Shown here one piece after another: positions 6,141 through 58,315 of a stretch of DNA of 64,000 nt; position 1 is the first letter of the stretch; each line of letters opens with the position of its first letter. The stretch lies in the NCBI GenBank assembly GCA_016218495.1, contig JACRDU010000094.1, forward strand, positions 42,608 to 106,607. Reading direction: 5' to 3'. Source of the stretch: Elusimicrobiota bacterium (GTDB lineage Bacteria; Elusimicrobiota; Elusimicrobia; UBA1565). The notes beneath the pieces are model-generated. The model was not told where the DNA came from. It saw only the letters and a program-made list of their open reading frames with translations, and did not search any database. The translations under genes were made by a program, and so were the position numbers.

Positions 6141-6223
6141 CTGATTAGTCTACCCTCCCCGTCCCGACAAATCCACGGGCCTTGCCTCCATATTTGTGCC
6201 TGCGAATGGGGAGGTGTTATCCT

Positions 6224-6901: not shown

Positions 6902-6905
6902 GGTC

Positions 6906-7472
6906 CTAGCCGCTCTTCCGCTTGGCTTCCCAAGCGACGGCGTCCGCCAGCATTTCGCGGCTGTAAGCCGCTTCCCGGAGCAGGTCCGTCTTCGTGGAGG
7001 AATCCGGGGAGTCCCGCAGGAAGGCCTCGTAGCCGGCGGCGAACTCCGCCGCGACCCTCAATCCGGCCGCGGCGGCGAGGGCGTCCCTCAGGCGTGCATC
7101 GAGCCCACCTGGCAGCTCAGAAACCCGGGGATGGACCTCCAAGAGTCGGGCATAGAGCGCCGCCCGAGCAGGTGTGCCCATCCCCTCCCATCCGTCGCCG
7201 ACGGCAGCGAAGATGCCCGACAAGACCGCTTCGACATCCGCGCCGTAGGACGGGGACCGTGTCCTGAGATAGGCCGCCGCGGGGAACACCAGGAGCACGA
7301 GCACGACGCCGAGGAAGACGACCGACCTCTGGACGACGCCGACCGCAAACGGATCCCCGGCCGCATAGCGGCCGATGAACCCGACGACCGCATATCCCGC
7401 CCCGACCAGGACGATGACCGCTTGGAGCCAGCCCGGCAGCCGCCCGAAAGAGCGGTACGGGTGCCATCTCAT
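6906..7472 (-). CDS. Hypothetical membrane protein (2 TM plus a soluble C-terminal domain).
   Basis: 188-aa ORF with the hydrophobic N-terminal half LQAVIVLVGAGYAVVGFIG...VVFLGVVLVLLVFPAAAYL. It is chosen over Arg-rich shadow ORFs in other frames. Confidence 0.4.
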   Translation of the reverse strand: MRWHPYRSFGRLPGWLQAVIVLVGAGYAVVGFIGRYAAGDPFAVGVVQRSVVFLGVVLVLLVFPAAAYLRTRSPSYGADVEAVLSGIFAAVGDGWEGMGTPARAALYARLLEVHPRVSELPGGLDARLRDALAAAAGLRVAAEFAAGYEAFLRDSPDSSTKTDLLREAAYSREMLADAVAWEAKRKSG

Positions 7473-7501
7473 GCCGAATTGATGTCGGCTCGGCTCACAG
7501 C

Positions 7502-21200: not shown

Positions 21201-24200
21201 TCTCCCCGGTCTCGACGCCGGCCCTGTTGCGCGCCTTGGCCTTGAACGAGTACTGCGTGTTCGGCTGCAGCCCGCTGAAGTGCCGCGCCCGCGCCATGTC
21301 GAACGACCAGGCCGTGCTGGTCACCGCCACGTCGGTGCCGCCTCCGGCCCCGTAGAGCTGGCCGTTCAAGACCGCCAGCCCGAACGCCGTGCGCGCCGGG
21401 GCCAGGCTACTGTACCTGGCCCAGGCGTCGACGGCGGGGTCATACTCCTCCACCAGCCCGCTGGCCGCGACGGGGTCCCGGCCCCCGACGACGTAGATCT
21501 TGCCGCCCACGGCCGCCGAGCGCCCCGCGTAGCGGGCCGGCGACGGCAAGACCGTCGGGGAGGACCAGGAGCCCAAGCCGGCGTCGAAGGCGGCGTGCAG
21601 GGTGGAGGGGACCCCGGAGGCCGTGCTACCCGCCACCAGGTAGACCTTCCCGCCCAGCGCGGCCGCGGCGCCTATCCCCCAGGCCGTCGGCACCGCCGTC
21701 CCGGTTGCCCAGGCACCCGCCGCCGGGTCGAAGGCCTCGTTGGCGCTCATCAGGTTCGACCCGCTCCAGCCGCCCAGCACGTGGACGCGGCCGTTGAGCT
21801 CGACGGCGCCCGCATAGGAGCGCGCCGTCGGCATCGCCGTCTTGCTGCTCCAGGCGTTGGCTGCGATGTCGTAGGCGTAGTTCGTCGTCAGCACCGGCCC
21901 GCCGCTGGCCCCGCCGACGACGTAGATGGTCCCCCCGACCCGCGCGGAGGCGAAGTCGGCGCGAGTGGCGGGCATGGCGGCCAATGCGCTCCAGGCCCCC
22001 GACGAGGGGTCGTAGGCCTCGGCGGAGGAGATGTAGGTGGTGCCGTCGTGGCCACCGTAAGCGTAGAGCCGGCCGGCGTAGGCGCAGAGGCCCGAGTTGT
22101 TGCGACCGGTGCTCATCGGGGGCAGCCACGCCCAGGCGTCGGACTTCCAGCCAGCGTACGCCCCGTCGCGGGCGATGTTGACCCCGCTCTGCCCGGCGTC
22201 TGAGCGCAGCGCCCCGGCCCCGGCGGCGTGGGCCCAGGCCACCAGGCTGTGCGAGGAGACCTCGTCGAAGAAGACCGCCGTCGGCGACTCGATGAGGGTG
22301 ACCGTGGAGCCCAGGGCGGTGAAGGGCCCGGAGAGGCCGGTGGAGACGCGCGCGTAGTAGCTGGTGTTGGCGCTCAAAGCCGAAAAGGATGCGGCGAGGT
22401 TCAGGGTCGTCGACGAGGCCAGGGTCCCCGAGAAGTCGGCAGCAGTAGACAGTTGAGCGGTATATTGGGTCCCGCCGGGGAAGCCCGACGCCCAGCCCGC
22501 CGTCAGGGCGGAGGTCCCCACCGAGCTCAAGCCCACGGCGGACAACATCCCGGGCTCCGCCACGAAGACGCTGCTCTCCGTGCCCCAGCCGCTGCGCGCC
22601 AGGCCGCCGTCGATGGTCTGCAGGCGGATGTAGTAGGTCGTCCCGGAGCGGATGTTGGCGGAGGCCGTGCCCAGGTCCACGCGGAAGTAGAGCCCGTGCT
22701 TGGCCGTCGCGTCCCCCGGCCAGACCCGGTAGGCCGGGCGCGGGTACGGGGTGTAGAGCGGCGAGCCGTTGTTCCAGGACACGGCGAAGCTCCCCGGCGA
22801 GGTCACGCGCAGGCCGTCGGGGGAAAGGGTCATCGGCGCGCTGGCCATGACCAAAGCGTAGGACAGGCTGGCCGTGGCCGAGGCCCCGTCGTAGGCCCCG
22901 GCGGCCCACTTGACCGTCATCGTCCCCCCGCCGGGCGCCAGGTCCAGGGTGACCGTATCCACGGCCGGGGCGCTGGGCGGCGCGTTGTACGGGGCCGCGT
23001 CGTTAAGCAGCAGGACTTCGTCCGTGCCTTGGTCCCAGTTGGCCACCAGCGCGTCCAGGTCCCCGTCGCCGTCGTAGTCCGCCCAAGCCGCGTCGACGCT
23101 GGCGTCGCCGGTCTCGGTCAGCAGGATTTTGGCGAAGACGCCACCGTCGTTGCGCAGCAGGTACTCGCGGGAATTCGTGCCGGACCCCGCCACGAGGATG
23201 TCCGCGTCCCCGTCGGCGTCGTAGTCGCCCACGGCCACGGCATAGGACGAAGAGGTGCCGGGGATGAGGGTCTTCACGAAGGCGCCGCCCGTGTTGCGCA
23301 GCAAGGCGATGTCGTCGAACCAGCCGTTGGCGACCACGGCGTCGAGGCGTCCGTCGCCGTCGAAGTCGCCCCAGGCCACATCTGCCGAGGAGCCTGCGGT
23401 ACCAGACAGGGTTACCGGGGTCAAGGTCCCGCCGTCGTTGCGCAAGAGGACCTCGTCGCCGGAATCGTTGGCCAGGATGGCGTCGAGGTCCCCGTCGTTG
23501 TCGTAGTCGCCCCAGGCGATGGCCTTCGTGTTGCCGCCGGTGCCTTCGATGGTGACGGCGCTCAGGACCCCGCCGTCGTTGCGCAGCAGGATTTCGTCGG
23601 CATCGGCCGGCGTCGCCTGCGCCAGCAAGGCGTCCGGGTCGCCGTCGTTGTCGTAGTCGCCCCAGGCCACGGCCACGCCCGACCCCGCCGTGCCGGGGAT
23701 GGTGACGGGCGCCCAGGTCCCCGCGTCGTTGCGCAGCAGGACGGCCCCCGAGTTGTCGCTGTTGGTGGCCAGCAGGGCGTCGAGGTCCCCGTCCCCGTCG
23801 GCGTCGGCCCAGGCCACGGCCCCGGCGTTGCGGGCGGAGGAGGTGATGACGACCTGGGTCAAGGTCCCGGCGCCGTCGTTGCGCAGGATGAGGGCGTCCA
23901 TGTTGGCGCTGTTGGCCACGAAGGCGTCCAGGTCCCCGTCCTTGTCGTAGTCCCCCCAGGCGACCCCGAAAGAGATTAGGCCGCTGCCCAGTTGGGTGCG
24001 CACGGAGAACAGCGGTGTGCGCGTGGAGCCCAGGACGGTGAAGGGGCCGGCCGGGGCCGTGGCCACGCGGGCGTAGTAGGTGGCATAGAGCGCCAAGCCC
24101 GTGAAGGTCGCCGAGAGGTTGAGCGTCGCCGACGAGGCCACGGTCCCCGAGAAGTCGGAGACTGAGGAGAGCTGGGCGGTGTATTGGGTGCCAGCCGGAT

Positions 24201-44420: not shown

Positions 44421-44789
44421 CTAGTCCTTCTTCGCGCCCGTCGTCTTCTTCTTCGCCGCGGCCTTCTTTTCGTCGTCTTTGCCGACCTTGGGGGCGGTGG
44501 AGAGGGTCTTGAGCTTCTTGTTCGTCCCCTGCGGCACCGAGGTCACCTTCTTGACCTCCGTCTGGGCCTCGCGGACGATGGTCTTGCCCTCGGTCTTGGC
44601 GAAGCGCTTCTGGAAGCGCTCGACGCGGCCGGCGGAGTCGACCAGGCGCTGCTTGCCGGTGAAGAAGGGGTGGCAGGCCGAGCAGATCTCGAGCTTGATC
44701 TCCTTCTTGGTGGAGCGGGTGGTGAACGCGGCGCCGCAGGCGCAACTAGCGGCCGCGACGTAGTAATTGGGGTGGACGTCAGCCTTCAT
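44421..44789 (-). CDS. rpmE: Ribosomal protein L31 (Zn-ribbon type) with a ~50-aa Lys-rich C-terminal extension.
   Basis: [10 protein letters not shown]…[14 protein letters not shown]…[15 protein letters not shown] matches L31. The tail is …[44 protein letters not shown]. Confidence 0.85.
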
Positions 44790-44823
44790 GTGTGTTTCCT
44801 TCCTCTATTCGGACTAGGTTCCC

Positions 44824-44840
44824 ATTATAGCAAAACCGGG
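44824..44840 (-). promoter_or_regulatory. Extended -10 promoter (TGcTATAAT) for rpmE.
   Basis: Minus-strand reading …cccggttTTGcTATAATgggaacctagtccgaatagaggaaggaaacacacATG. Perfect TATAAT with an upstream TG and a weak -35. It lies ~30 nt after the rho stop. Confidence 0.45.
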
Positions 44841-44859
44841 CCCTCCCACGACGGGGGCC

Positions 44860-46323
44860 CTATTCCAGCGACGACAGCTCCATGGCCTTGAGGAAGTCCT
44901 TGTTGGACTTGGTCGCCAGCAGCTTGTCGGAGAGCAGCTGCATCGCGTCCACCGAGGCCAGGCTGGCCAGGATCTTGCGCAGGATCCAGGTCTTGTTGAG
45001 CTCGTCCTCGGAGAGCAGCAGCTCCTCCTTGCGGGTCCCCGAGCGGTTGATGTCGACGGCCGGGAACAGCCGGCGGTCCGCCATCTTCCGGTCGAGCACC
45101 ACCTCGGAGTTGCCGGTTCCCTTGAACTCCTCGAAGATGACCTCGTCCATGCGCGAGCCCGTTTCGACGAGGGCGGTCGCCACGATGGTGAGCGAGCCCC
45201 CCTCCTCGACCTTGCGCGCCGCCCCGAGGAAGCGCTTGGGGCGCTGCAGCGAGGTGGCTTCGAGGCCGCCGGAGAGCACGCGCCCCGTGGATGGGGCGAT
45301 CGTGTTGTACGCGCGGGCCAGGCGGGTGATGGAGTCGAGCAGGATGACGACGTCGCGCCCCATCTCCACCTGGCGCTTGGCCTTCTCGATGACCATCTCC
45401 GCGACCTGCACGTGCCGGTCGGCGGGCTCGTCGAAGGTGGAGGCCACGACCTCGCCCTTGACCGAGCGCTGCATGTCGGTGACCTCTTCGGGCCGCTCGT
45501 CGATGAGGAGCACGATCAGCACGATGGTCGGGTGGTTCTCGGTTAGCGCGTTGGCGATCTTCTGGAGCATCACCGTCTTGCCGGTCTTCGGCGCGGCGAC
45601 GATGAGGGCGCGCTGCCCCATGCCGACGGGGGCCACGAGGTCGATGACCCTGGTCACGATCTCCTGGCGGGAGGTCTCCAGCCGGAAGCGCTGGTTCGGG
45701 TGCAGCGGGGTGAGGTTCTCGAAGGCCGTGCGCGTCTGGAGCTGCAGGGCCGGCACGCCGTTGATGTTGAGGACCTGGAGCAGGGCGAAGAAGCGCTCTC
45801 CGTCCTTGGGGCCGCGCACGTTGCCGGCGACCGTGTCGCCCTTGCGCAGGCCGAACTTCTTGATCTGGGACGGCGAGACGTAGATGTCGTCCGGGCCCGG
45901 CAGGTAGTTGTAGTCGGGGGAGCGCAGGAACCCGAAGCCGTCCGGGAGCACCTCGAGGACGCCCTCGTCGTAGATGACGCCGTTGGCGCGCGCCTGGCCC
46001 TCGAGTATCTTGACGATGAGCTCCTGCTTGCGCAGGCCGCTGATGGCTTCGAGGCGCATCTCCTCGGCGAGCTTGATGAGCTCGGGGATCTTCTTCTTGG
46101 CGAGCTGGTTGACGTCCAGGGGCTGGCGCGCCGGCTGCGCAGGCTGGCTGCCCTGAGGGACGGCGGGGGCCGGCGCGGGGGGGTCGCCCTGCGGGGCGGG
46201 AGCCGGGGCCGGGGGAGGACCGTCTCGGCGGCGGTCCTGGCGCTCCCTGTGGCCGTCCGGGCGCCCGTTCTCGGGCTTGCCTTCCCCGCGCGGGGCGTCC
46301 GTCGGCTTCGTGGTGTGGCTCAT
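44860..46323 (-). CDS. rho: Transcription termination factor Rho with an N-terminal low-complexity (Arg/Pro-rich) extension.
   Basis: Start re-derived at [15 protein letters not shown]… (GGAGG 7 nt upstream; ATGA overlap with coaE). Rho_N helix bundle [19 protein letters not shown]; CSD-like RNA-binding region; Walker A AAPKTGKT; RecA-like core. The first ~75 aa (…[29 protein letters not shown]…) are disordered. Confidence 0.9.
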
Positions 46324-46940
46324 GTGCGGCCTCCAAGGCCCGAGGCTAACAGCTCGAAAGCCTGTTGGTATTCGGCGACGGCGCGGCGTAGGGCCGCGCG
46401 CGGGCCGCCGTTGGGGATCACGACGTCGGCCATCCCGGCCTTGCGGGCCTCGGGCCATTGGGCCCGGGCCCGGCGCCGCGCCGCCGCGCGGCTGCCGCCG
46501 TCGCGTCGCAGGACGCGGGCGGCGCGCAATCCGGCGGGCGCGGTCACGCAGACGGTCAGGTCGAATTCCTTCTCCATCCTCTTCTCGAAGAGCAGCGGGA
46601 CGTCGATGACGGCGACCGGCCGGCGCCCCTCGGCCATGCGGCGCGAGAGCTCCTTGAGGATGCCGGGATGGCTGGCCCGCTCGAGCCGGCGGAGCGCCGC
46701 GGGGTCGCGGAAGACCGCTTCGGCTATCCGCCGGCGGTCCAGGCCGCCGTCCGGCTTGAGGACGCCGCGCCCCATGGCCGCCACGACGGCACGGTAGACG
46801 GGCCCGCCCCGGCGCGAGAGCTCGTGGGAGAGCGCGTCGGCCGAATGGGTCTCCGCCCCGGCGGCCGCGAAGGCCCGCAGGGCCTCCGACTTCCCCGCGC
46901 CGATGGCGCCGGTCAGGCCGACGAGGAGGCGCCGTCTCAA
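46320..46940 (-). CDS. coaE: Dephospho-CoA kinase.
   Basis: P-loop [14 protein letters not shown]. The start overlaps the rhomboid stop (ATGA) and the stop overlaps the rho start (ATGA). Confidence 0.8.
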
Positions 46941-47788
46941 GCGGCCCCTCCGCCGCCCTTCTTGCGCGCCTGGCGCTTCAGGATGTCCCGCTCCCGCTCG
47001 GTCAGGGAGGCTTCGCCCTCGGCCAGGATCTTGTCCAGGATGCGGTCCACCTCGGCCATGTCGTCGGAAGGCTCGAGGGCCTCCTCCCGCCGCGGCGCGC
47101 CCACGGCCTGGGGGCGCCGGCGCGGCTTAGGGGCGGAGGCCCCGCGTTCCGGCCCCATCCCCGAGAAGAGGGACTTCATCCTCAGCGAGGCCTCGAACCA
47201 CCAGCGGATGTAGAGATAGCCGATGACCATCCCGCTCAGGTGCGCCACGCGCGCGCTGGCCGGGTTCGCGGCCGACGCCCCGGCGAAGAACTCGATGGCG
47301 CCGAAGAGCAGGGCCATGTGCTTGGCCTTGATCGGGAAGAAGAAGTACAGGTAGACCACCGCCTCCGGGTAGAGCATCGCGAAGGCGGTCAGCAGGCCGA
47401 AGACCGCGCCGGAGGCGCCGATGATGACATGGTGGGCGTTGGGCGCGACGGCGACGCTGACCAGCCCGGCCCCGACGCCGGTCAGCAGGAAGTACTTGAG
47501 GAACTCCCGAGGGCCCCACTGGGCCTCGACGGGCATCCCGAACATCCAGAGCGCGAAGAGGTTGAAGAGCACGTGGAAGAAGCTGCCGTGGAGGAAGAGA
47601 TAGGTGAACGGCTGCCAGACCCAGCGCTCATGCACGACCTGGTAGGGCACCAGCCCGAAGAGGGTCTGGAACTGGCCGCCGACCAGCAAGGAGAGGATGT
47701 AGACCGCCGCGTTGGCGACGATGAGGCCCTTGATGACCGGGGACATCGCCCGGAAGTCCAGCGGCCCGTGCCCGAATTGTCTGCTCAT
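46937..47788 (-). CDS. Rhomboid-family intramembrane serine protease.
   Basis: Multi-TM; catalytic Ser in GASGAVFG; catalytic His in …[10 protein letters not shown]… The ATG (M8 of the TTG-initiated track ORF) overlaps the polA stop (ATGA). Start choice is uncertain by a few codons. Confidence 0.7.
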
Positions 47789-50421
47789 AGAGGCTCCATC
47801 TCGTCCCAATTCGGCCCGGCCTTCAGGTCGACGACGACGGGCACCTGCAGAGGGACCGCCTTCTCCATGAGGCCCTTGGCCCAGGCGCCGAAGGCCTCCG
47901 CCTCCTTGCGCTCGACCTCGAAGACGAGCTCGTCATGGACCTGAAGCAGCATCCGGGCCCCCTTCCGCCCGGCGCCCATCTCGGCATGGATGTCGACCAT
48001 CGCCTTCTTGATGATGTCGGCCGAGCCGCCTTGGATGGGGGTGTTCACCGCCATCCGCTCGGCGCCCATGCGCAGGCGCGGGTTCTTGGCGGCCAGCTCG
48101 GGGAAGCGGCGGACCCGGCCGAGCAGGGTGCGCACGCAGCCCTCCTGCTTGGCGGAAGCCATGGTCTGGTCGAGCCACCTCTTGACCCCGGCGTAGCGGG
48201 CGAAATAGCCCTTGATGAACTCCTGGGCCTCCTTCTGGCTGATGCCCAGGCCCCGCGCCAGGCCGAAACCGGTCTGCCCGTAGACCACCCCGAAGTTGAC
48301 GGCCTTGGCGCGCCGCCGCATCTCCTTGTCCACCGATTCGAGCGGGACGCCGAAGACCTCCGAGGCCGTCCGGGCATGGACGTCCCCTCCGGAGCGGAAC
48401 GCGTCGACCAAGGCCGGGTCCGCGGAAAGGTGGGCGAGGACGCGCAGGTCGATCTGGGAGTAGTCGGCCGACAGCAGGACCTTCCCGGCCGGGGCCACGA
48501 AGGCCCGGCGGATGCGCCGACCCAGCGGCGTGCGCACCGGGATGTTCTGCAGGTTGGGGTCCGAGCTGGAGAGCCGGCCCGTGGCCGTGCCCGCCTGGTC
48601 GAAGTGGGTCCGCACGCGGCCGTCTACGGGGTCGCGCTTGGCCAGCAGCGCCTCGACATAGGTCGACTGGAGCTTGGTGATCTCGCGCCAGTCGAGGACG
48701 AGCCGCGGGACCGGATGATGGGCCGAGAGGACGGCCAGCGCCTCTTCGTCGGTGGACCGGCCGCCCTTGTCCGTCTCGTGGGGGACCGGCAGGCTGAGCT
48801 CGTCGTAGAGGTAGGCCGAGAGCTGCTTGGTGGAGGCGATGTTCACCGGGCGTCCGGCGGCGTTCTCGACCTCGCGCAGCACCTGCGCGATGCGCGCCGC
48901 GAACTCCGTGCGCAGCCGCGAGAGGTAGCCGGCGTCGACCAGCACGCCGGCGGCCTCCATCTCATCGAGCACGGCGCGCGCCGGCAGCTCGAGGCCGGCG
49001 TAGAGCCCGCCGAGGCCGGCGGCCTCGAGCTCGCCCTCGAGCACGCCGAGGAGCGCCGGAACCGAGGCGGCGCGGCGCGCCAGGCCCGCATCCCCTCCCA
49101 GCGCGGCCCCCCGGGACTCGAGCAGGCTGGGCAGGTCGGGCCTGCGGGAAGGCTCCAGACAATAAGCGGCGAGATAGGTGTCTCCCGCGGCCCCGCCCAG
49201 CGTGATGCACTCGCCGCGCAGCAGGCGGGAGACCTCCTTGAGGTCATGCCCCACCTTCCTCGGCACAGGGGCGGACAGGAGGGCCTCCAGGGCCTTGCGG
49301 TTCTTGGAGAACGCCATGCCTTCGAAGACCGCCGTGCCGCCGTCCGGCAGGGCCAGTGCGATATGCGGGGTCCCGTCCGAGAGCAGGTCGGCCTGGGGCG
49401 AGGGCTCCGCGGCCACCGAGACCAGCGCGGCCTTGGCGGCGGCCTTGAGCAGGGCGGCGGGGTCGGTTTCCTTGTAAGAGAAGGCAAGGGGGGCCCCGGG
49501 GGCGCTCCGGGCCCCGTCGGCCGCCGGGACGGCGGGGGCGGGGGCGGGTGCGCCGAGCTCGCGCAGCAGGCTGAAGAACTCCAGCCGGGTGAAGAGCTCT
49601 GCCAGGCCCTGCGCCTTGCCCAGGGCCGCGACGCAGGCCCCGGGCTGCAGGGGGACGGGGGCCTTGGATTCGAGGCGGATGAGCCCCCGCCCCTTCAGGA
49701 CGGCCGCCTCGCCGTCGAGGAAGGCCTTGGCGACGCGCTCGGGGATGTCGGCATGCCCCTTGTGGGCGGCCTTCAATATCCCGTCCAGGGTCTGGAACTT
49801 GGAAAGGAGCGTCACGGCCCCGACGGGCCCGACACCGGCCACGCCCTTCACGTTGTCGGAAGAGTCGCCCACGATGGCGAGGTAGTCCACGAGCTGGTCG
49901 GGGCGGACCTTGAACTTCTCCTCGACCCTGCCCGCGTCGAAGAGGACGCCCTTCGCCTCGTTCCAGACCTTGACCCGGTCGTCGACCAGCTGCAGCGCGT
50001 CCTTGTCCCCGCTGACCAGGACGACCTTGAGCCCTTCGGCGACACCCCGTGCGGCCAAGGTTGCCATCAGGTCGTCGGCCTCGAAGCCGGGGACGGCGGC
50101 CGTGGGGAGGCCCATGACCCGCACCATCTCCTCGGCCAGGCCCAGCTGCTTCTTGAGGTCGGCGTCGGTCTCCGCGCGCTGGGCCTTGTATTCGGCGTAG
50201 GCCTTGTGCCGGAAGGTGGGCTCCGGCGTGTCGAAGCAGACGGCGACGAAGTCGGGCTTCTGCTTCTTGAGCAGGCCTACGAGCATCCGCGCGAAGCCGT
50301 AGAGGGCGCCGACCGGCTCCCCCGCCTTGGTGGTCAGGGGAGGCAACGCATGGGACGCCCGGTGAAGGTAGGCGTGCGCGTCGATCAGGTAGAGTGATTT
50401 CTCGGCGGTCTTCGTCGACAT
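47785..50421 (-). CDS. polA: DNA polymerase I (5'-3' nuclease plus polymerase; the 3'-5' exonuclease motifs appear degenerate).
   Basis: N-terminal 5' nuclease (…LYLIDAHAYLHRA…GFEADDLMATLA…). Polymerase motifs A (LLSADYSQIDLRVLAHLS), B (RRRAKAVNFGVVYGQT) and C (QVHDELVFE). No clear DxE / YxxxD exonuclease motifs in the middle domain. Confidence 0.9.
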   Translation of the reverse strand: MSTKTAEKSLYLIDAHAYLHRASHALPPLTTKAGEPVGALYGFARMLVGLLKKQKPDFVAVCFDTPEPTFRHKAYAEYKAQRAETDADLKKQLGLAEEMVRVMGLPTAAVPGFEADDLMATLAARGVAEGLKVVLVSGDKDALQLVDDRVKVWNEAKGVLFDAGRVEEKFKVRPDQLVDYLAIVGDSSDNVKGVAGVGPVGAVTLLSKFQTLDGILKAAHKGHADIPERVAKAFLDGEAAVLKGRGLIRLESKAPVPLQPGACVAALGKAQGLAELFTRLEFFSLLRELGAPAPAPAVPAADGARSAPGAPLAFSYKETDPAALLKAAAKAALVSVAAEPSPQADLLSDGTPHIALALPDGGTAVFEGMAFSKNRKALEALLSAPVPRKVGHDLKEVSRLLRGECITLGGAAGDTYLAAYCLEPSRRPDLPSLLESRGAALGGDAGLARRAASVPALLGVLEGELEAAGLGGLYAGLELPARAVLDEMEAAGVLVDAGYLSRLRTEFAARIAQVLREVENAAGRPVNIASTKQLSAYLYDELSLPVPHETDKGGRSTDEEALAVLSAHHPVPRLVLDWREITKLQSTYVEALLAKRDPVDGRVRTHFDQAGTATGRLSSSDPNLQNIPVRTPLGRRIRRAFVAPAGKVLLSADYSQIDLRVLAHLSADPALVDAFRSGGDVHARTASEVFGVPLESVDKEMRRRAKAVNFGVVYGQTGFGLARGLGISQKEAQEFIKGYFARYAGVKRWLDQTMASAKQEGCVRTLLGRVRRFPELAAKNPRLRMGAERMAVNTPIQGGSADIIKKAMVDIHAEMGAGRKGARMLLQVHDELVFEVERKEAEAFGAWAKGLMEKAVPLQVPVVVDLKAGPNWDEMEPL

Positions 50422-50441
50422 CGTACGGTACGTCGGACCCG

Positions 50442-51008
50442 TCAGCCGGCCTTCAACGCCTCGCGAACGGCCTTCTCCATCCCTTCATGCACGGTCTGGT
50501 CGTACCCGAACCACTGCGTCAGGACCCTGCCTTCCCTGTCTATCAGGAAGGCCTGCGGCAGCCCCCGGAGCTTGTAGGCCTCGCGGGCCGCCTCATCCTC
50601 ATCGAGGAGCACCGTATAGGTCATCCGGTGCTCTTTTACGTAGTCCGGCACGGCATCGGCGACCGAATCGACACTGACGCCCACGACCTCAAGGCCCGAC
50701 CCCTTGAACTCGCGATAGAGCCGGTCCAGGGCCGGCACCGACTCCTCGCACGGGCCACAGTAGGTGGCCCAGAAGTCGAGGAGGAGCACCTTGCCCCTGA
50801 AATCGCCCAGGCGGACGGTCTTGCCCGCGAGGTCCTTCAGCGCGAAGTCCGCCGCCGGGGGCGCCGCCTTCCCGGCCTCGGGGGCCGGGCGGCAGGCCGC
50901 CAGCGCCAGCAGGGCGCAGGCAAAGAGTCTAGTTGACCAGTTCGTCGAGGGTCTTCTTGATGTCGGCCTTGGAGTGAACGCCGACGAGCTGGTGTTCGAC
51001 CTTGCCAT
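50442..51008 (-). CDS. TlpA/ResA-like periplasmic thiol-disulfide oxidoreductase (thioredoxin fold, lipoprotein-like N-terminus).
   Basis: WATYCGPCEE (CxxC) and TlpA-like context (…LLLDFWATYCGPC…GLEVVGVSVD…). Hydrophobic/lipobox-like LFACALLALAAC. The only ATG/GTG/TTG start in frame (51008) lies 80 nt inside trxA, so the start is uncertain. Confidence 0.65.
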   Translation of the reverse strand: MARSNTSSSAFTPRPTSRRPSTNWSTRLFACALLALAACRPAPEAGKAAPPAADFALKDLAGKTVRLGDFRGKVLLLDFWATYCGPCEESVPALDRLYREFKGSGLEVVGVSVDSVADAVPDYVKEHRMTYTVLLDEDEAAREAYKLRGLPQAFLIDREGRVLTQWFGYDQTVHEGMEKAVREALKAG

Positions 51009-51252
51009 TCTTGAAGAAGAGCATCGTTGGAATCGCGGAGATGTTGAAGCGGGTCGCCGCGTTGGGGTTGTCGTCCGTGTTGAGCTTGGTGACCTTGACC
51101 TTCCCCGCGTACTCCTTGGCCAGCTCTTCGACGATAGGGCCCAGCATCCGGCACGGGCCGCACCAGGGCGCCCAGAAATCGACCAGCACGGGCTGCGGGC
51201 TCGTCAGGACCTCTTTATCGAAGGTGTCGTCGGTGAGCTGGAGTTCGGACAT
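50929..51252 (-). CDS. trxA: Thioredoxin.
   Basis: 107 aa; WAPWCGPCRM active site. RBS CCAGGAGG. Confidence 0.9.
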   Translation of the reverse strand: MSELQLTDDTFDKEVLTSPQPVLVDFWAPWCGPCRMLGPIVEELAKEYAGKVKVTKLNTDDNPNAATRFNISAIPTMLFFKNGKVEHQLVGVHSKADIKKTLDELVN

Positions 51253-51311: not shown

Positions 51312-51340
51312 ATGATAGCAGGGAGACCCCGCCTTGTCAA
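51312..51340 (-). promoter_or_regulatory. Putative sigma70-like promoter for trxA (TTGACA-17-TATCAT).
   Basis: Minus-strand reading agcattgacaaggcggggtctccctgcTATCATcgtc…(≈60-nt leader)…ccaggaggcagtccccATG. It lies immediately after the REC gene stop. Confidence 0.5.
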
Positions 51341-51342
51341 TG

Positions 51343-51726
51343 CTAGCGCTCGATGAGGTAGTGGATCTCTTCCCAGAGGGCGTCCAGGTTGATCGGCTTG
51401 GACAGGTAGGCGTCGGCGCCGGTCAGGAGCCCCTCGGCCCGGTCGGCGGGCTCCGTGTACTTCGCCGAGAGCATCACGACGGGGATGCCCTTGAGCCGAG
51501 GGTCCCGCTTCATCCGGCGGCACAGCTCGATGCCGTTGCCGTCGGGGAGCTGCACGTCGAGCAGGACCAAGGCGGGCAGCCTCTCCGCCATCACCCGTAA
51601 GGCGTCGCCGGCCGACACGGCCCCCTCGACGGCCACGTCCTTCAGGGACATGGCGTCGGCCAAGGTCTCCCGGAAATGGCTGTCGTCGTCGACGAGCAGG
51701 ACCGCCGTCTTCGTCGCGGCGGTCAT
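51343..51726 (-). CDS. Stand-alone receiver (CheY-like REC) domain protein.
   Basis: Start re-derived at MTAATKTAVLLVDDD…; phospho-acceptor context ALVLLDVQLPDGNG; …PVVMLSAKYT…; ~127 aa. The ATG overlaps the stop of the M50-S8 gene (ATGA). The long 5' extension of ORF 51343..52086 is rejected. Confidence 0.75.
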   Translation of the reverse strand: MTAATKTAVLLVDDDSHFRETLADAMSLKDVAVEGAVSAGDALRVMAERLPALVLLDVQLPDGNGIELCRRMKRDPRLKGIPVVMLSAKYTEPADRAEGLLTGADAYLSKPINLDALWEEIHYLIER

Positions 51727-54700
51727 TTGGCCCCGCCCATAATCCACAAGGACAGCCGGGACACCCAGCCCGGGGCGGCGGGGGCGAAGCCCTCGGCCAG
51801 GAGCTTGTCGTAGGCGGCCTTCACCGAGTTGAAGCCGGAGCCGATGGAGGCCTCGCTCTGGTTGAGCTCGTTGGTCAGGGTCGCCATCACGGCGTTGACG
51901 ATGGCGTCGAGCTTCGCGCCCTTCTCGGTCACGCCGAACATCATCGCCAGCAGCGCCAGCGTGCCGGCGAACTTGGGCGTGGACATCGAGGTGCCGGAGA
52001 TGGCCCGGGTCTTTCCGCCCGGCCAGGCGCCCTCGGTGTCGTTGCCCTGCTCGGCGGCCTCGGGCTTGCGCGGGTAGTCCTTCCACTCCCCGCCGCGGCG
52101 GGTCACGGCGGAGCCGGGGCCCTTCGAGGAGAAGCTCGTGACCGTCTTGTTCTTGTCGGTGGCCGCGATGGAGAGCACGCGGTAGGCTCCCGTCTTCGCA
52201 TCCTTATAATAGGCGATGGCCGGGGAGCCGATGCTGTTCGCCCCCGCGTAGCCGTTGTTGCCGGCGGCGAAGACCATGATGTGGCCCTCTTCCGCCAGCT
52301 TCTTGACCAGCTGGGAGTCCGGGCTGGCCGGGTCCCCGCCGTCGTCGCCCCAGGAGTTCGACATGATGATGTTGCCGTCGTTGGCCGCCATCGTCAGCCC
52401 CTTGAGCACGTCGTCGGTGGTCGCCCCGCCGTCGGTGAAGGCCTTGTAGTGGGTGATGCTCTTGAGCCAGGGGGCATAGTTGAGGACCATCGAGGTCACC
52501 CAGGTCCCATGTCCGTTGTCGTCGATGCCGTCGCCGTTGGGCCGGACGTCCTTGTGCCCGGCCAGGCCGGGCTTGACCAGGGGGTGCTCGATGTCCACGC
52601 CCGTGTCGATGACGGCCACCTTGGGCTGGGCCGGGGCGTCGCCGAAGAGCCGCAGCAGGCTGCGGGCCAGCCAGGACCGGAAGCCCACCCCGGGGGCCCC
52701 CCAGCGCGCGCGGGCGATCTCATGGACCTTGTCCGCGGCGGAGAGCTTCAGGGTGTCCTTCATCGAGATGGAACCCCATTGGGTCTCGCTGGCCGGCCGC
52801 ACCGCGCCGGGCGTGTCTTCGATGGGGCGCACGATGGAGCGCGCCTCGTTCTGGTAGACCTTGAAGCCGCGCGCGGCCATATCGGCCTCGAACCGCTCCG
52901 CGGCCGCGAGCGGGACGCGGATGGAGGCCGTGTTGATGCGCTTGTAGGCCGCGACCGGGGCCGCGCCGTAGATGGAGAGGGCCTGGGCTCCGAGGCCGGC
53001 CGCCTCGAGCTCGGCCGACAGCGCCCCCTGCTGGCTGGCGAAGAGGGTGACGCCGCCGGGCCGGGTGACGTCGATGAGCCCGAGGTGGATGTCGGAGCCC
53101 AAGGGCCGCTGGGTTCCCTGGAGCTGCACGAGCACCAGCTTGGATTCAGGCATGGGGGCCGCGGCGGGAGCGGAGGGCGACCCGGGGGCCGCCGCCAGGC
53201 TCATGAAGAGGGCCAGCGGCAGGAAGAGGGCGCTCGTCACGCCCGTGATGAGTCCCATCAGGGCCCCGCCGCCGTACATCAGGGTGAGCACCAGGCCGTA
53301 GAGCTGGAGCCCCGCATGCCGGTCGAGCCAGGCCGCAGCGCCCGGCGCCTTGAGCCAATCGGCGACGACATGGCGCACGATGTGGTGGCCGTCGAGCGGG
53401 AAGAACGGCAGCAGGTTGAAGATGCCGAGCATCACGTTGAAGAGGACGAAGGCGTGCGCGGCGGCCGCCGCAAGGCCGCCGATGCCCGCAGCCGCCAGGC
53501 CGATCCCGGCGGCCGCGCCGAGCAGGGCCAGGGCGAAGTTGACGGCGGGGCCGGCGAAGGCGATCTTCGCCATGTCGGCGCCCGGCTTGCGCAGGTTCTG
53601 CTCCTTGACCTGGACGGGGACGGCCCCGCCGAAGAGGAGGCCGGTGAAGGCCAGGGTCAGCAGCGGCACCGCTATGGTCATCAGCGGGCTGATGTGGGTC
53701 AAGAGGTCGCGCGGGGTCCAGCCCAGACGGCCCTGCAGGCGGGCCGTGGGGTCGCCCAGCTTATCGGCCGCCTTGGCGTGGCCCATCTCATGGAGGATCA
53801 GCGAAGGGACGACGAAGGCCGCGTACAGCGGGGCCATCACGAAGAAAGCGGGGGAGATGGCGTGGGTCAGGACGCCGACGCCCAGGCCCGCGCCGAGCAG
53901 GAGCGCCGAGCCGGCCCAGGTGCTGACGAAGCGGCCGGCCGCGCCGAAGCGGGAGACCCAGGACGGGGACATCATGCTGAAGAGCTCGGAGCTCCCGCCG
54001 CGCTCCCCGCCGAAGTCGGGGTCGGAGCGGTCGTCGGGCCCGCCTTCGCCGCCGCGCCGGGGCGTGTTGCCCAGGTCGTCGAGGCCGTCGGTGGAATCGG
54101 GGCTGTCGGCGGGGTTCCCCTTCGTCTCATCGGGCATGCCCTTGGACTTGGCCAGACCCGAGCGCGAGGAAGACGCGCCCTTGGCGGCGTTGAAGGTCCC
54201 GCCGACCTGGCCGGCGCGCGCCGCGGAGCCGTCGAAGAGGCGGCCCAGCGCGGAGGGGCCGGTCCAGCCCTTGCGCACGGAAGAGAACAGGCCGTCGTTG
54301 CCGCCCCGGTCCCCGCCGTAGTCGGGGTCGGAGCGGTCGTCGGGCCCGCCTTCGCCGCCGCGCCGGGGCGTGTTGCCCAGGTCGTCGAGGCCGTCGGCGG
54401 AGTCCGGGCTGTCGGCGGGAGTCCCCGTCGTCTCATCCGGCATCGCCTTGTCCTTCTTGAATTCGGAACGGTAGGCGGAGGCGCCGGGCACGGAGAGCGG
54501 CAGGGCGGCGGCGGCTTGCGCGGCGGCGGTCGTCTCGGCGCGCGGGATGGAGACGACGGGCAGCCCGAGGCTCGGGGAGACCAAGGCGCCGGGCGTCGCC
54601 AGGCCGAGGGCGCCCGGCTTGACCATCGTGACGGCGCCCGCCGCCCCGATGGAGCCGACGGGGCTCACGCCCGTCGCAGTGGGAGCGGCCATCCTGCCGA

Positions 54701-54788
54701 GCTGGGCCCAGGCGTTGGAGCCGGGGGCGAGCGCGATGAGGGAGAGGGAAATGGAGAGGGCGACGGCGGAGCGCAGTGTCTTGGTCAT
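51723..54788 (-). CDS. Multidomain protease: signal peptide, acidic tandem repeats, M50 (site-2-protease-like) intramembrane metalloprotease domain and a C-terminal S8 subtilisin-like serine protease.
   Basis: Start re-derived at MTKTLRSAVALSISLSLIALAPGSNAWAQ (AAGGAGG ~18 nt upstream). M50 motifs LILHEMGHAKAA (HExxH in TM) and FNLLPFFPLDGHH (NxxPxxxLDG). S8 triad VAVIDTGVD (Asp), DNGHGTWVTS (His), SGTSMSTPKFAG (Ser). The upstream part of ORF 51723..56135 is Arg/Gly-rich shadow and is rejected. Confidence 0.65.
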   Translation of the reverse strand: MTKTLRSAVALSISLSLIALAPGSNAWAQLGRMAAPTATGVSPVGSIGAAGAVTMVKPGALGLATPGALVSPSLGLPVVSIPRAETTAAAQAAAALPLSVPGASAYRSEFKKDKAMPDETTGTPADSPDSADGLDDLGNTPRRGGEGGPDDRSDPDYGGDRGGNDGLFSSVRKGWTGPSALGRLFDGSAARAGQVGGTFNAAKGASSSRSGLAKSKGMPDETKGNPADSPDSTDGLDDLGNTPRRGGEGGPDDRSDPDFGGERGGSSELFSMMSPSWVSRFGAAGRFVSTWAGSALLLGAGLGVGVLTHAISPAFFVMAPLYAAFVVPSLILHEMGHAKAADKLGDPTARLQGRLGWTPRDLLTHISPLMTIAVPLLTLAFTGLLFGGAVPVQVKEQNLRKPGADMAKIAFAGPAVNFALALLGAAAGIGLAAAGIGGLAAAAAHAFVLFNVMLGIFNLLPFFPLDGHHIVRHVVADWLKAPGAAAWLDRHAGLQLYGLVLTLMYGGGALMGLITGVTSALFLPLALFMSLAAAPGSPSAPAAAPMPESKLVLVQLQGTQRPLGSDIHLGLIDVTRPGGVTLFASQQGALSAELEAAGLGAQALSIYGAAPVAAYKRINTASIRVPLAAAERFEADMAARGFKVYQNEARSIVRPIEDTPGAVRPASETQWGSISMKDTLKLSAADKVHEIARARWGAPGVGFRSWLARSLLRLFGDAPAQPKVAVIDTGVDIEHPLVKPGLAGHKDVRPNGDGIDDNGHGTWVTSMVLNYAPWLKSITHYKAFTDGGATTDDVLKGLTMAANDGNIIMSNSWGDDGGDPASPDSQLVKKLAEEGHIMVFAAGNNGYAGANSIGSPAIAYYKDAKTGAYRVLSIAATDKNKTVTSFSSKGPGSAVTRRGGEWKDYPRKPEAAEQGNDTEGAWPGGKTRAISGTSMSTPKFAGTLALLAMMFGVTEKGAKLDAIVNAVMATLTNELNQSEASIGSGFNSVKAAYDKLLAEGFAPAAPGWVSRLSLWIMGGAK
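54000..54450. repeat. Two ~150-bp near-identical direct repeats (spaced ~300 bp) encoding acidic Pro/Asp/Gly-rich modules in the M50-S8 protein.
   Basis: 54005-54150 vs 54308-54450 are almost identical. The protein modules are K(A/G)MPDET(T/K)G(T/N)PADSPDS(A/T)DGLDDLGNTPRRGGEGGPDDRSDPD(Y/F)GG(D/E)RGG. Confidence 0.75.
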
Positions 54789-54929: not shown

Positions 54930-56618
54930 GTGTCGGCAGCCCTCCTCGCGCTGATGCTCTTCGCCCCTGCCCCCGCCGGGGCGGCCGGGCAGGGCGACCC
55001 GGTCCTGGACGCTCTGAGCGCCGAGCTGTCGCGCTCCTTCTCGGGCCTGCGCCGCAAGCACCCGGCCCCGCCGCTGTACTACCTCTCCTATCAGGCCCTG
55101 GAGACCCGCTCCCTCGGCCATACCGCCGTCCTCGGCTCGATGCTCGCCGAGTCCGAATCCGCTTCGCGCACCCTCGACGTCGATGTCCGCGTCGGCAGCC
55201 CGCTGCTCGACAACACACACGAGATCAAGGGCGCCGAGAGCGCCGGCCACGAGGACGCCTCGACCTCCGGCCCCCTGCCGCTGGGCGACGACCCGCTCGC
55301 GCTCAGGATGGCGGCCTGGGCCTTGACCGACATGGCCTTCAAGGACGCCCAGGCCCGCTACACGAAGACCACGGCCGACCGGGCGGTCAGCGCGGACGAG
55401 AGCGACACTTCGGGGGATTTCACGCTTCAAGAGGGCCTGCGGCACTCCGAGCCGCCCCCCCCCGCCCCGCGAGACCCCGGCCCCTGGCGCGAGCGCCTGC
55501 GCCGGGTCTCGGCGCGGGCGGCGCGCCACCCCGCCCTCGTCTCGTCGCAGGTCTCCCTGTCCCAGGATTCCGTGCGGTCCTGGTTCGTGGACTCGCAGGG
55601 CGCGGCGCTGGCGACCTCGGAGACCTCGGTCCGCCTCGACCTGTCGCTGACGGCCCGCACCACCGACGGGATGGCCCTCGACCGGAGCGCGTCCTGGACG
55701 GCCCGTACCCCGGACGGGCTCCCGTCGGAGGAGGAGGCCGCGCTGACCCTCGACCGTCTGGCCGGAGAGCTCCGCGCGCTGTCGACCGCGCCCGACGCCG
55801 TCCCCTACCACGGCCCGGCCGTGTTCGGGTCGACCGCCGCGGCCGTGCTCTTCCACGAAATCCTCGGCCACCGCCTCGAAGGGCAGCGCCAGAAGCTCGA
55901 GTCCGAGGGACAGACCTTCGCGACGAAGCTGGGCCAACCCGTCACGGCCCCGTTCATCTCCGTCTTCGACGACCCGACTCTGGACTCCCTGGCCGGTTTC
56001 CCGCTGGCGGGCCATTACCGCTTCGACGACGAAGGCCGCCCGGCCGAGCGGGTCGACCTGGTCAAGGACGGCCGCCTGACGGGCTTTCTGATGTCGAGCA
56101 TGCCCATCGCCGCGTTCCCGCGCTCGAACGGGCATGGACGCCGCTCCCCCGGCCGCAGGGCCGTGGCGCGCATGGCCAACCTCGTGGTCTCCGCTTCGAC
56201 GACGGTGCCGTCGGCGGACCTGCGGGACCTCCTGCGCGCCGAGCTCCTACGCCAGAAGAAGCCCTGGGGGCTCTGGTTCTCCGACGTCGAGAGCGGCTAC
56301 ACCACGACGACGCGCGACGCCACCCAAGCCTTCGAGGTCGACCCCAAGCTGGTCTACCGGGTCTGGGCCGACGGAAGGCCCGACGAACCCGTGCGCGGAG
56401 TCAACATCGTCGGGACCCCGCTGACCTCGTTCACCAAGATCATCGCCGCTGCCGACGACATGGGGGTCTTCAACGGCGTCTGCGGCGCGGAGTCCGGCTG
56501 GGTCTCCGTCTCGGCCGCCTCCCCCAGCCTCCTGTTCAGCGAAATCGAGGTGGAGAAGGGGGTCAAGGACGCCGAGCGCCCGCCGCTCCTGGCCCCCCCC
56601 GCCCAGGACAAGCGATGA
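54930..56618 (+). CDS. Secreted TldD-like metallopeptidase (TldD/PmbA family, HExxxH-containing subunit).
   Basis: GTG start; signal peptide MSAALLALMLFAPAPAGAAG. TldD motifs FHEILGHRLEG (HExxxH), RSNGHGRR, GVFNGVCGAESGWVSVSAASPSLLF. Confidence 0.75.
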   Translation: MSAALLALMLFAPAPAGAAGQGDPVLDALSAELSRSFSGLRRKHPAPPLYYLSYQALETRSLGHTAVLGSMLAESESASRTLDVDVRVGSPLLDNTHEIKGAESAGHEDASTSGPLPLGDDPLALRMAAWALTDMAFKDAQARYTKTTADRAVSADESDTSGDFTLQEGLRHSEPPPPAPRDPGPWRERLRRVSARAARHPALVSSQVSLSQDSVRSWFVDSQGAALATSETSVRLDLSLTARTTDGMALDRSASWTARTPDGLPSEEEAALTLDRLAGELRALSTAPDAVPYHGPAVFGSTAAAVLFHEILGHRLEGQRQKLESEGQTFATKLGQPVTAPFISVFDDPTLDSLAGFPLAGHYRFDDEGRPAERVDLVKDGRLTGFLMSSMPIAAFPRSNGHGRRSPGRRAVARMANLVVSASTTVPSADLRDLLRAELLRQKKPWGLWFSDVESGYTTTTRDATQAFEVDPKLVYRVWADGRPDEPVRGVNIVGTPLTSFTKIIAAADDMGVFNGVCGAESGWVSVSAASPSLLFSEIEVEKGVKDAERPPLLAPPAQDKR

Positions 56619-58315
56619 GGACGGCCGCCCTCCTGGCCCTCTTGACGGCCTCCGGGCACGCGCGTCCCCCCGCCAAGGCCGCCTCGGACGCCGTCCTCAC
56701 GGCCGCGCTCCGTGAGATGGAACGCTCCCTCGCCGGGCTCTCCCTGGACAACGTGCGCCCATTCCGGCTGTCGTACACCCTGCTGAGCGCCCGCAAGGTC
56801 TCCGCGGAAGCCTCCTTCGGCTCGCTGGAGAGCTCGGCCGTGGAGACCGACCGGCTCGCATCGGCCGACCTGCGCGTCGGGTCGCCCGATTTCGACAACA
56901 CGGATTTCATCGGGGCAGACGGGGGCGGCCACGCCCCCTTCACCATCCAGGTCCCCCAGGAGGACGGCGCCCTCGGTCTCCGCTACGGCCTGTGGTGGAT
57001 GACCGACTCGGCCTTCAAGTCGGCCCACCGGCGCTGGTCCCAGAAGGACGCGTTCCGCCGCGCCAAGAACCTGCCCGAGCTCCTTGCGGATTCCGTCCCC
57101 GCCCCGGTCGCCGTCTACGACGCGGTGGAGCAGGACACCGCCCTTCCCGTGGCGCGGGCCGAAGAGGCCTCACGGGCCGCTTCGGCGGCCCTGCGCGGGA
57201 ACCCGTCCCTCCATTGGGGCCGGGCCGCGGTCCGCTCGGAGGAGGGCCTCCTGCGCTTCCTCGACTCGGAGGGGCGGCGCGTCCGCAGGACCGATGCGCG
57301 CTACGAGGCCCTGATCGCCGCCGAGACCCAGGCCCCCGACGGCATGCCGCTGCGCCAGGAGCGCCGCTTCCTGACCCGGCGCGCCTCCGCGCTGCCCTCC
57401 GACGCCGCCCTCGCCGCCGAAGCCCGGGAGCTGGCCGCGGACCTGGCGGACCTGGCGGCGGCCCCCGGCTTCGAGACGCCCTACATCGGCCCGGTCCTCT
57501 TCGAGGGTCAGGCGGCGGGAGAGTTCTTCCACCAGCTCCTGGCCCGGGGGCTCCAGGCCCCCCGCGAGATGCTCCGCGAGAGCGAGTCGCTGCGCGACGC
57601 GTTCGGCCCCGGCGAGCTCACGGGCCGCCTGGGCCTGCGCGTCGCCGGGAGAATCCTGTCGGCCTATGACGACCCTCTGCGCGAGGAAGAAGGCGGGGTC
57701 CTCCTGTCCGGCTACGCCCCGGTCGACGACGAGGGGGTCCCGGCCCGGCGCATCGCCCTGCTGGAACGCGGAATCCTCAAGGGACTCCCTCTCGGGCGCG
57801 CCCCCGCCCGCAGCCTGAGCGGCTCCAACGGCCACGCCCGCGCGTCGCTCTCCCACCTTCCTTCCCCGCGCGCCGCCTGCCTGTTCGTGGACGCCGAAGG
57901 GAGCCTGGACGCGCAGGCCCTGCGCGCGGAGCTGCTGCGCCGCGCCGGGGACTTCGGCCTCTCCTACGCCGTCGTGGTACGGCGCCTCGCGGGGACATCC
58001 GAGATGCGGGACGGGGACCTGCTGCCGCCTCCGGCCTATGCCCTGAAGGTCTATCCCGACGGCCGCGAGGAGCCGCTGCGGGGCGCGGTGTTCGACGGCG
58101 TGACGATGCGGGCCCTGCGCGATGTGGCGGCCGCCGGCGCCCGGCGCCGCGTCTACAACTACATGCAGCCCGGGCCTTACGGGTCCGCCGACGACGCCGT
58201 CCCGGCCAGCATCGTCCATCCCGACATCCTCGTCACCGAGATGGAGCTGGTGCCCGACGAGCGCGAACCTGACCGGGACCCGGTGCTCCCGAGCCCACTG
58301 GAGGACGCACGATGA
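56615..58315 (+). CDS. Secreted TldE/PmbA-like partner protein (TldD/PmbA family; HExxxH degenerate).
   Basis: The ATG overlaps the upstream stop (ATGA). Signal peptide MRTAALLALLTASGHA. Family motifs FHQLLARG (no Glu after His), GSNGHARAS and the C-terminal TldD/PmbA fold. The N-terminal 580 aa of ORF 54869..58315 are rejected. Confidence 0.7.
   Translation: MRTAALLALLTASGHARPPAKAASDAVLTAALREMERSLAGLSLDNVRPFRLSYTLLSARKVSAEASFGSLESSAVETDRLASADLRVGSPDFDNTDFIGADGGGHAPFTIQVPQEDGALGLRYGLWWMTDSAFKSAHRRWSQKDAFRRAKNLPELLADSVPAPVAVYDAVEQDTALPVARAEEASRAASAALRGNPSLHWGRAAVRSEEGLLRFLDSEGRRVRRTDARYEALIAAETQAPDGMPLRQERRFLTRRASALPSDAALAAEARELAADLADLAAAPGFETPYIGPVLFEGQAAGEFFHQLLARGLQAPREMLRESESLRDAFGPGELTGRLGLRVAGRILSAYDDPLREEEGGVLLSGYAPVDDEGVPARRIALLERGILKGLPLGRAPARSLSGSNGHARASLSHLPSPRAACLFVDAEGSLDAQALRAELLRRAGDFGLSYAVVVRRLAGTSEMRDGDLLPPPAYALKVYPDGREEPLRGAVFDGVTMRALRDVAAAGARRRVYNYMQPGPYGSADDAVPASIVHPDILVTEMELVPDEREPDRDPVLPSPLEDAR

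Follow-up and report, generated by a model that had tools for sequence, protein, structure and literature searches.

A predicted envelope protein of Elusimicrobiota that carries an M50 membrane protease and an S8 subtilase in one polypeptide

Regulated intramembrane proteolysis proceeds by a first, extracytoplasmic cut and a second cut within the membrane, and the coordination of the two is its main regulatory problem. In every two-step system studied, to our knowledge, separate enzymes make the two cuts. In the eukaryotic SREBP/ATF6 pathway the site-1 protease S1P (MBTPS1/SKI-1, family S8) is followed by the site-2 protease S2P (MBTPS2, family M50), the two acting in trans, and parallel two-step systems are found in the bacterial pairs DegS (S1) with RseP (M50) and SpoIVB/CtpB (S55/S41) with SpoIVFB (M50). 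Here we describe a gene from a bacterium of the Elusimicrobiota, a phylum with very few cultured members, that encodes an M50 core and an S8 subtilase in the same chain. It is located on the minus strand at positions 51723–54788 of a stretch of 64,000 nucleotides (contig JACRDU010000094.1 of assembly GCA_016218495.1, positions 42,608 to 106,607), which was analysed as a whole and is called the window in the following. Eukaryotic S1P and S2P are two separately trafficked enzymes, whereas the fusion uses the same two families in one polypeptide, and its M50 part is without the PDZ and Cys-rich insert of human S2P. From the bacterial pairs it differs in that its serine protease is of family S8 and covalently joined, and in having neither PDZ or CBS domains nor an adjacent sigma/anti-sigma pair. 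The S8/M50 pairing shared with S1P/S2P looks like independent convergence and not orthology; orthology to eukaryotic S1P was rejected because the S8 part is no nearer to S1P than to generic subtilisins.

The gene is a single unbroken open reading frame (ORF) of 1021 codons, the translation of which matches Pfam families PF02163 and PF00082, both above their cut-offs. The presence of M50 and S8 in one polypeptide, as claimed in the original prediction, is thereby confirmed, with both catalytic sets intact and conserved. The domains follow each other in the order Sec signal peptide, disordered acidic region of about 240 residues, M50 core, propeptide-like domain and S8A subtilase. Long spurious ORFs are frequent in the window, which has a G+C content of about 72%, and an ORF of 1470 residues that extends this frame to position 56135 was discarded as a high-GC artefact and not a real gene. 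Adjacent M50 and S8 genes could also have been fused by an assembly or frameshift error in a metagenome-assembled genome, and one related locus, L052, does have the M50 part (6046–6813) and the propeptide with S8 (6506–8266) as separate overlapping ORFs, which represent either a true gene split or a frameshift error. However, 38 independent species-level assemblies and dozens of metagenome contigs share the continuous ORF, the linker region between M50 and S8 is itself conserved in an alignment of 62 sequences, and neither a frameshift nor a gene break, either of which would have spoken against the original prediction, was seen between M50 and S8. A frameshift or mis-assembly origin was rejected because the same ORF recurs across the 38 species-level genomes, and the chance that the fusion is such an artefact is negligible.

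A search of 5.8 billion proteins returned an identical (100%) NCBI entry, named 'S8 family serine peptidase [Elusimicrobia bacterium]' (P0001), and about 65 homologues with 37–71% identity, nearly all with both Pfam domains. All catalytic residues of both proteases are invariant in alignments of 23 and 62 sequences (38–71% identity), and many of the inter-domain residues are conserved as well. When one genome per GTDB species was scanned, with two S8 peptide patterns as seeds, 58 family loci were obtained, all labelled Elusimicrobia/Elusimicrobiota or plain 'bacterium'; the next matches beyond the family were S8-only proteins from Chloroflexota with about 30% identity. Exhaustive searching of 1.84 billion cluster representatives with an HMMER profile ranked some 30–35 full-length clusters at 50% identity first, then fragments and then small stand-alone M50 proteins, and no independent M50+S8 fusion of intermediate score was present. 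The fusion is conserved across the phylum, and the family was seen here only in Elusimicrobiota-labelled or unclassified genomes. No description of an M50-S8 fusion was found in the searchable literature on M50/S8 fusions, Elusimicrobia proteases and S2P architectures, and NCBIfam holds no family-level model for it, the best matches being far under their cut-offs, which agrees with the earlier statement that such fusions were not known to have been described. Taken singly, the domains are ordinary representatives of known families: a small M50 protease lacking PDZ and CBS domains and a divergent S8A protease that has a propeptide-like domain. The novelty consists in their combination, its phylum-wide conservation, a family-specific acidic motif, and a natural series of orthologues that lack either the M50 or the S8 part.

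The M50 or site-2-protease membrane core covers residues ~291–531 (window 53196–53918, minus strand) and matches PF02163 (Peptidase_M50) with an E-value of 3.5e-12 and 46.6 bits against a cut-off of 27.2. An AlphaFold2 model built on the 62-sequence alignment (mean pLDDT, the predicted local distance difference test score, of 75; pTM, the predicted template modelling score, of 0.58) has pLDDT values above 90 for most of the core (~320–520), for residues 549–652 and for most of the S8 domain. It places helices in the M50 part at residues 291–308, 314–343, 368–382, 402–433, 438–458, 466–478, 482–505 and 507–531, with a site-2-protease fold. The zinc-binding and catalytic motif HEMGH (H333, E334 and H337; window 53778–53792, minus strand) sits at the end of helix 314–343, and the motif NLLPFFPLDG (window 53388–53417, minus strand), which contains N458, P461, the third zinc ligand D466 and G467, aligns to NLIPAFPMDG of mjS2P and brings LDG into a later helix. 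These residues, and also N451, are invariant in the 62 sequences, so that the M50 core with both motifs stands as first read from the DNA.

No Pfam match to a PDZ domain (group I) or a CBS domain (group III) was obtained in the protein, and the block can be classed from its sequence as an M50 member outside the RseP and SpoIVFB subgroups. Its closest relatives (E ~1e-43 to 1e-47) are small stand-alone M50 proteins of about 200–235 residues, annotated as 'site-2 protease family protein' and COG1994-like, among them P0145, P0150, P0155 and P0160. They share with it the layout HExxH...GDxTA...GRxxxNPxxHID...PVPV...AGP...NxxPxxPLDG and a hydrophobic tail of about 36 residues. The small proteins start 14–30 residues before HExxH and have nothing else attached, whereas the fused block is flanked by an exported acidic region and a pro-subtilase and has an extra hydrophobic, glycine-rich front segment. 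The M50 block thus looks like an entire small site-2 protease embedded within a larger, apparently exported protein.

The S8A subtilase catalytic domain, residues ~722–1000 (window 51789–52625, minus strand), matches PF00082 (Peptidase_S8) with an E-value of 1.3e-30 and 107 bits against a cut-off of 21.8, and has the subtilisin fold in the model. The triad residues D728 (DTG), H760 (HGT) and S934 (GTSMS) occur in the expected order together with N844 of the oxyanion hole, and all four are invariant in the 62 sequences; the complete triad is accordingly borne out, and the absence of an aligned Asp, His or Ser, which would have spoken against it, was not observed. Residues ~547–655 (window 52824–53150, minus strand) form a beta-alpha-beta-beta-alpha-beta unit in the AlphaFold2 model, and this unit and the S8 domain co-align in a fold comparison with unprocessed pro-subtilisin E over 332 of 355 residues. 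The stretch had no Pfam match when searched alone; on the model it appears to be a subtilisin-propeptide-like domain docked on the catalytic domain. Secreted pro-subtilisins such as pro-subtilisin E (3whi), Tk-subtilisin (4jp8) and Tk-SP (3afg) show only ~23–27% identity, and unlike them the fusion has a helical insert of about 65 residues that separates the first S8 strand from the propeptide-like domain, and is tethered to a polytopic membrane protease.

The top partial NCBIfam match was to the mycosins (MycP, type VII secretion; TIGR03921, E 5.8e-17, score 61.8 against a cut-off of 278.75), which resemble the fusion in being S8 proteases held at the membrane but are anchored by one C-terminal segment and lack an M50 domain; type VII secretion genes are absent from the vicinity of the fusion gene. 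Membership of the mycosin, CspBA, daptide protease and PatA families was rejected, all matches being far under the curated cut-offs, and so was a relation to the anti-phage S8 system IetS/IteS, where the PADLOC match (E 6.6e-6) is a local one of about 50 residues around DTG and the NCBIfam score for IetS is 13.8 bits against a cut-off of 900 bits.

The chain ends in a conserved amphipathic tail, residues ~1005–1021 (...WVSRLSLWIMGGAK; window 51726–51776, minus strand), recognized in the alignment and with an AlphaFold2 helix at 1008–1018. This terminal helix, with the pattern '...AGP.xRLxL...G.APK', is kept also in orthologues lacking M50 or S8. The tail is longer in P0025, P0030, P0049, P0059 and others, and is often preceded by a charged helical segment of about 70 residues.

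At the other end, residues 1–28 (window 54705–54788, minus strand) constitute a Sec-type signal peptide, judged by sequence and conservation. In the N-terminus MTKTLRSAVALSISLSLIALAPGSNAWA|Q, a K/R n-region is followed by a hydrophobic core of about 13–14 residues, a P-G helix breaker and an A-W-A cleavage site. The signal peptide proposed earlier is thus well founded, and it is conserved also in the orthologues without M50. Positions L17, P22 and G23 (window 54720–54740; 'LSPG..AY') are invariant in 23 sequences and at least 90% conserved in 62, which is unusual for such peptides and may point to a particular step in processing or sorting.

The following residues ~29–270 are rich in Gly, Ala, Ser, Asp and Pro, with a net charge of -8 and no Cys, and are disordered in the AlphaFold2 model (pLDDT <50). 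The region contains two copies of an acidic repeat, found as a direct repeat and by motif scan: copy 1 at residues 102–168 (window 54285–54485, minus strand), with the motif D-D-L-G-N-x-P-R-R-G-G-E-G-G-P-D-D-x-S-D-P-D, and copy 2 at residues 204–270 (window 53979–54179, minus strand), which adjoins the membrane part and is the copy common to most homologues. They are 201-nucleotide direct repeats with 83% nucleotide identity and a spacing of 306 nucleotides, and 52 of the 67 residues are identical. The original prediction of two near-identical acidic repeats of about 50 residues in tandem was therefore right as to the two acidic copies, but these are 67 residues long and spaced with a period of 102 residues, not head-to-tail. 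Across the family the motif reads D-[DE]-[LI]-G-N-P-x-R-R-(3 to 5 residues)-G-P-D-D-x-S-D and is present in 1–3 copies per protein. A regular-expression scan of the window and all 86 loci did not find it outside the protease genes, and a 59-residue motif query against a large protein database gave two candidates, neither significant, the query probably being too short and too low in complexity for the word index.

The family is modular. Among 56 GTDB-representative loci with a strong S8 match, 38 have the M50 block and 18 are without it in a scripted count; the 18 include fragments at contig ends, and 11 of them are orthologues that are complete and occupy the same chromosomal site (L043, L046, L047, L048, L049, L053–L056, L058 and L064). 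These shorter forms run from the signal peptide through the acidic motif(s) and the propeptide-like domain to S8, as in the 817-residue P0066 (L056, 5851–8454), with the catalytic triad kept but with no HExxH and no transmembrane segment. The assembly that contains L012 has a second copy, L040; it is a further complete gene without M50, and no receiver gene follows it downstream. In a rough neighbour-joining tree of the propeptide and S8 region, the forms without M50 make up at least three clades that are nested among those with M50, which indicates that the M50 block has been lost repeatedly. The converse arrangement is seen in P0114 (583 residues; L086, 5001–6752), which has the signal peptide, the N-terminal region, M50 and the C-terminal tail but not the propeptide and S8, and is located at the same site, followed by the receiver gene, trx and polA. 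L086 also encodes, divergently upstream, two further response regulators and a hybrid histidine kinase. Among other variants, P0149 is similar to P0114 but has lost HExxH, and P0119 (687 residues) has an M50 block and a membrane region followed by an M48/HtpX-like HExxH domain (GHELSHIRHQD) in place of the subtilase, which makes it a dual-protease fusion of another kind, M50-M48. In P0104 (1511 residues) and P0175 (1205 residues) the subtilase is followed by long C-terminal repeats of the WD40 beta-propeller type, P0175 having a further C-terminal domain and no M50 block, and extra C-terminal membrane helices are present in P0005, P0062 and P0108.

The variants bear on the topology of the membrane part. 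The forms without M50 keep the signal peptide and have no other hydrophobic segment, and should therefore be exported. Loss of the M50 block on at least three occasions, with the flanks still working, suggests that the block has an even number of passes and that its flanks lie in one compartment, and as they follow a signal peptide this argues that both flanks are extracytoplasmic. Four passes with N-out/C-out orientation as in RseP, the subtilase and the acidic region being periplasmic and the zinc site facing the cytoplasm, is the arrangement we consider probable. The mean number of K+R per loop is 4.95 (residues 338–367), 2.55 (383–401) and 3.35 (461–491), as opposed to 0 (434–437) and 0.02 (309–313), which favours the canonical orientation of site-2 proteases. 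The uncharged run before HExxH is just 31–34 residues in P0049, P0017, P0039 and P0062, and the hydrophobic stretch after the LDG loop only ~25–33 residues in P0048/P0015, each fitting one pass on its side. The helices that flank the three-helix catalytic core differ between groups of site-2 proteases (PMC9401612), and the parity of passes is thus not settled by homology alone.

By homology to mjS2P, the helices 291–308 and 482–505/507–531 might be full passes, corresponding to its transmembrane segments 1, 5 and 6, and this tells against the four-pass arrangement, as do a charged loop (DGGLASK) and a KK..KK stretch in the clade of P0010–14. The core would then have six transmembrane segments with N-in/C-in orientation like mjS2P/SpoIVFB, and the acidic region and S8 would be cytoplasmic, where the receiver could bind and regulate them. 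In support, the sequence alignment to mjS2P reaches the region of its fifth segment, the K/R-rich stretch before the segment called 'TM0' in the P0010–14 clade and the K/R-rich C-terminal tail fit an inside location, and the constant adjacency of a cytoplasmic receiver would be accounted for. This arrangement requires, however, that the N-terminal hydrophobic helix is not an export signal, while the N-terminus is a textbook cleavable signal peptide; the subtilase would have had to switch compartment at least three times, given the exported forms without M50, and the hydrophobic residues are too few for two passes before HExxH in proteins of the P0049 type or after LDG in P0048. We therefore regard it as improbable. 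More improbable still is an inverted site-2 protease, with a working signal peptide, 'TM0' truly crossing the membrane and the active site facing the periplasm; its substrates would be transmembrane segments of reversed polarity. In its favour, an mjS2P-like fold of six helices and an even number of passes become compatible with a functional signal peptide. Against it, about 11 K/R of each protein would come to lie in periplasmic loops and the cytoplasmic loops would have none, a strong violation of the positive-inside rule, and the short hydrophobic run before HExxH in some members cannot make two passes. The orientation would also be the opposite of that of every characterised site-2 protease known to us.

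With the subtilase and acidic region outside, the best explanation, although one that may well prove wrong, is a two-headed envelope protease performing site-1 and site-2 proteolysis in cis. The periplasmic subtilase head would cut membrane-anchored envelope proteins on their extracytoplasmic side ('site-1'), and the M50 core of the same chain would then cut the transmembrane stub that is left ('site-2'), the outcome being intramembrane proteolysis for regulation or for clean-up. The dibasic acidic motif next to the membrane would be a candidate for a tethered cleavage site or pseudo-substrate site of the subtilase. The fuller proposal, that the protein is a self-contained site-1 and site-2 protease, an independently arisen, fused bacterial counterpart of S1P/S2P with the acidic motif as a tethered switch, is put forward as more doubtful. 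Several observations pull the other way: no candidate substrate emerged from the neighbourhoods or the motif scans, a protein that is mostly periplasmic offers a cytoplasmic receiver no obvious binding site, no conserved anti-sigma factor or membrane-tethered regulator is present in eight inspected neighbourhoods or in the window, and several lineages do without the M50 block and at least one without the subtilase. Since either head can be dispensed with in some lineages, the two proteases need not share a substrate.

As the main alternative, the protein might be an exported subtilase with a dispensable M50 module serving mainly as membrane anchor, and perhaps also in clearance of remnants of signal peptides or transmembrane segments or in release of the head by self-cleavage, with no sequential action on one substrate and with the S8 head as an ordinary extracytoplasmic degradative or maturation protease. 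This is favoured by the repeated loss of either head, the pro-subtilase orthologues without M50 having arisen at least three times with triad and genomic site kept, and by a propeptide-like domain of the kind found in secreted subtilases. In the same direction point the closest M50 relatives, which are small stand-alone proteins without known signalling partner, and a neighbourhood in which genes for envelope proteases and for redox proteins abound (TldD/PmbA, M48, TlpA-like, rhomboid). A mere anchor, on the other hand, needs no invariant HExxH and NxxPxxxLDG across 38–71% identity; moreover the fusion is kept in 38 of the 56 loci, and the orthologue lacking S8 retains the M50 core. On balance we think it a possible but not a likely description of the protein.

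Directly downstream of the protease gene is a gene for a stand-alone receiver (REC) of 127 residues (window 51343–51726, minus strand; PF00072, E 7.8e-23, 81.2 bits against 30.2). It has the receiver residues, with the acidic pocket D13/D14/D15 and D57, S87 and K110, and consists of REC only, with no output domain. Its ATG overlaps the TGA of the protease gene as ATGA, as had been noted from the start. No histidine kinase is encoded in the operon of the window, and among the related loci the hybrid kinase is located upstream only at L086. A sigma-70-like promoter site (window 51312–51340, minus strand; TTGACA-17-TATCAT with TG, 11/12), which is a match to the consensus only, is located directly after the REC stop and about 60 nucleotides before trx; it is the only one in the region, with 1 found against 0.1 expected, and a scan of the region for terminators found none. 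The ATGA overlap, and a promoter-like site only after REC, point to the protease and REC genes being a two-gene unit. REC is found on the same strand within 600 nucleotides downstream in 47 of the 53 loci with enough downstream sequence and about 890 nucleotides away in two more, and it is present in all eight neighbourhoods that were individually inspected.

REC is kept also beside orthologues without M50 (e.g. L046, L048 and L053–L056) and beside P0114 in L086, which lacks S8, indicating that its adjacency is not specific to intramembrane proteolysis. The idea of regulated intramembrane proteolysis coupled to a phospho-receiver has for this reason no specific support. The adjacency may largely reflect an old gene order, X-REC-trx-polA-rhomboid-coaE-rho, as read from the loci compared. 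The loci where REC is kept but trx-polA is elsewhere all belong to one clade, and few independent events thus support a functional link between protease and REC.

Downstream of REC, many loci share the order trx, TlpA-like redoxin, polA, rhomboid, coaE, rho, rpmE and prfA; in the window this block, from trx to prfA, is at 44421–51252 on the minus strand, it is present also in L002, L005 and L007, and it is an old, phylum-wide housekeeping order. The rhomboid, of a second intramembrane protease family, is encoded directly after polA. On the other side, two genes for PmbA/TldD-type metallopeptidases (PF19289; window 54930–56618 and ~56600–58315, plus strand), each with a hydrophobic signal-like N-terminus, are followed by folB. 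The TldD/TldE pair divergent from the protease gene, originally described as secreted, is seen in the window, but it stands beside the protease gene only in some clades (L005, L007, L014, L024 and L051), with M48 and MFS genes in this place elsewhere. Other clades have just upstream a giant protein of 1620–1633 residues matching both Peptidase_M48 and MFS_1, a further protease fusion of unusual kind, or separate M48 and MFS genes (L003, 1506–6407; L006, 2927–7789; L001, 4858–7793). Farther away, at 12250–25332 on the minus strand, the window contains an ORF of 4360 residues with good coding statistics and a third-position G+C (GC3) of 0.92. Its product contains many Kelch repeats together with FG-GAP repeats, fibronectin type III domains and a right-handed beta-helix, and is probably a giant surface protein.

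If the two heads do act in sequence, the S8-M50 fusion would be a minimal model of how the two cuts of regulated intramembrane proteolysis are coupled, and would represent a convergent pairing of S8 with M50. The natural 'deletion mutants' that lack M50 or S8 at the same locus make the coupling testable by comparative genomics and heterologous expression. If the heads act independently, the protein would simply be an unusual membrane-anchored subtilase. The fusion offers a first functional handle on an envelope protein that is conserved throughout the phylum Elusimicrobiota.

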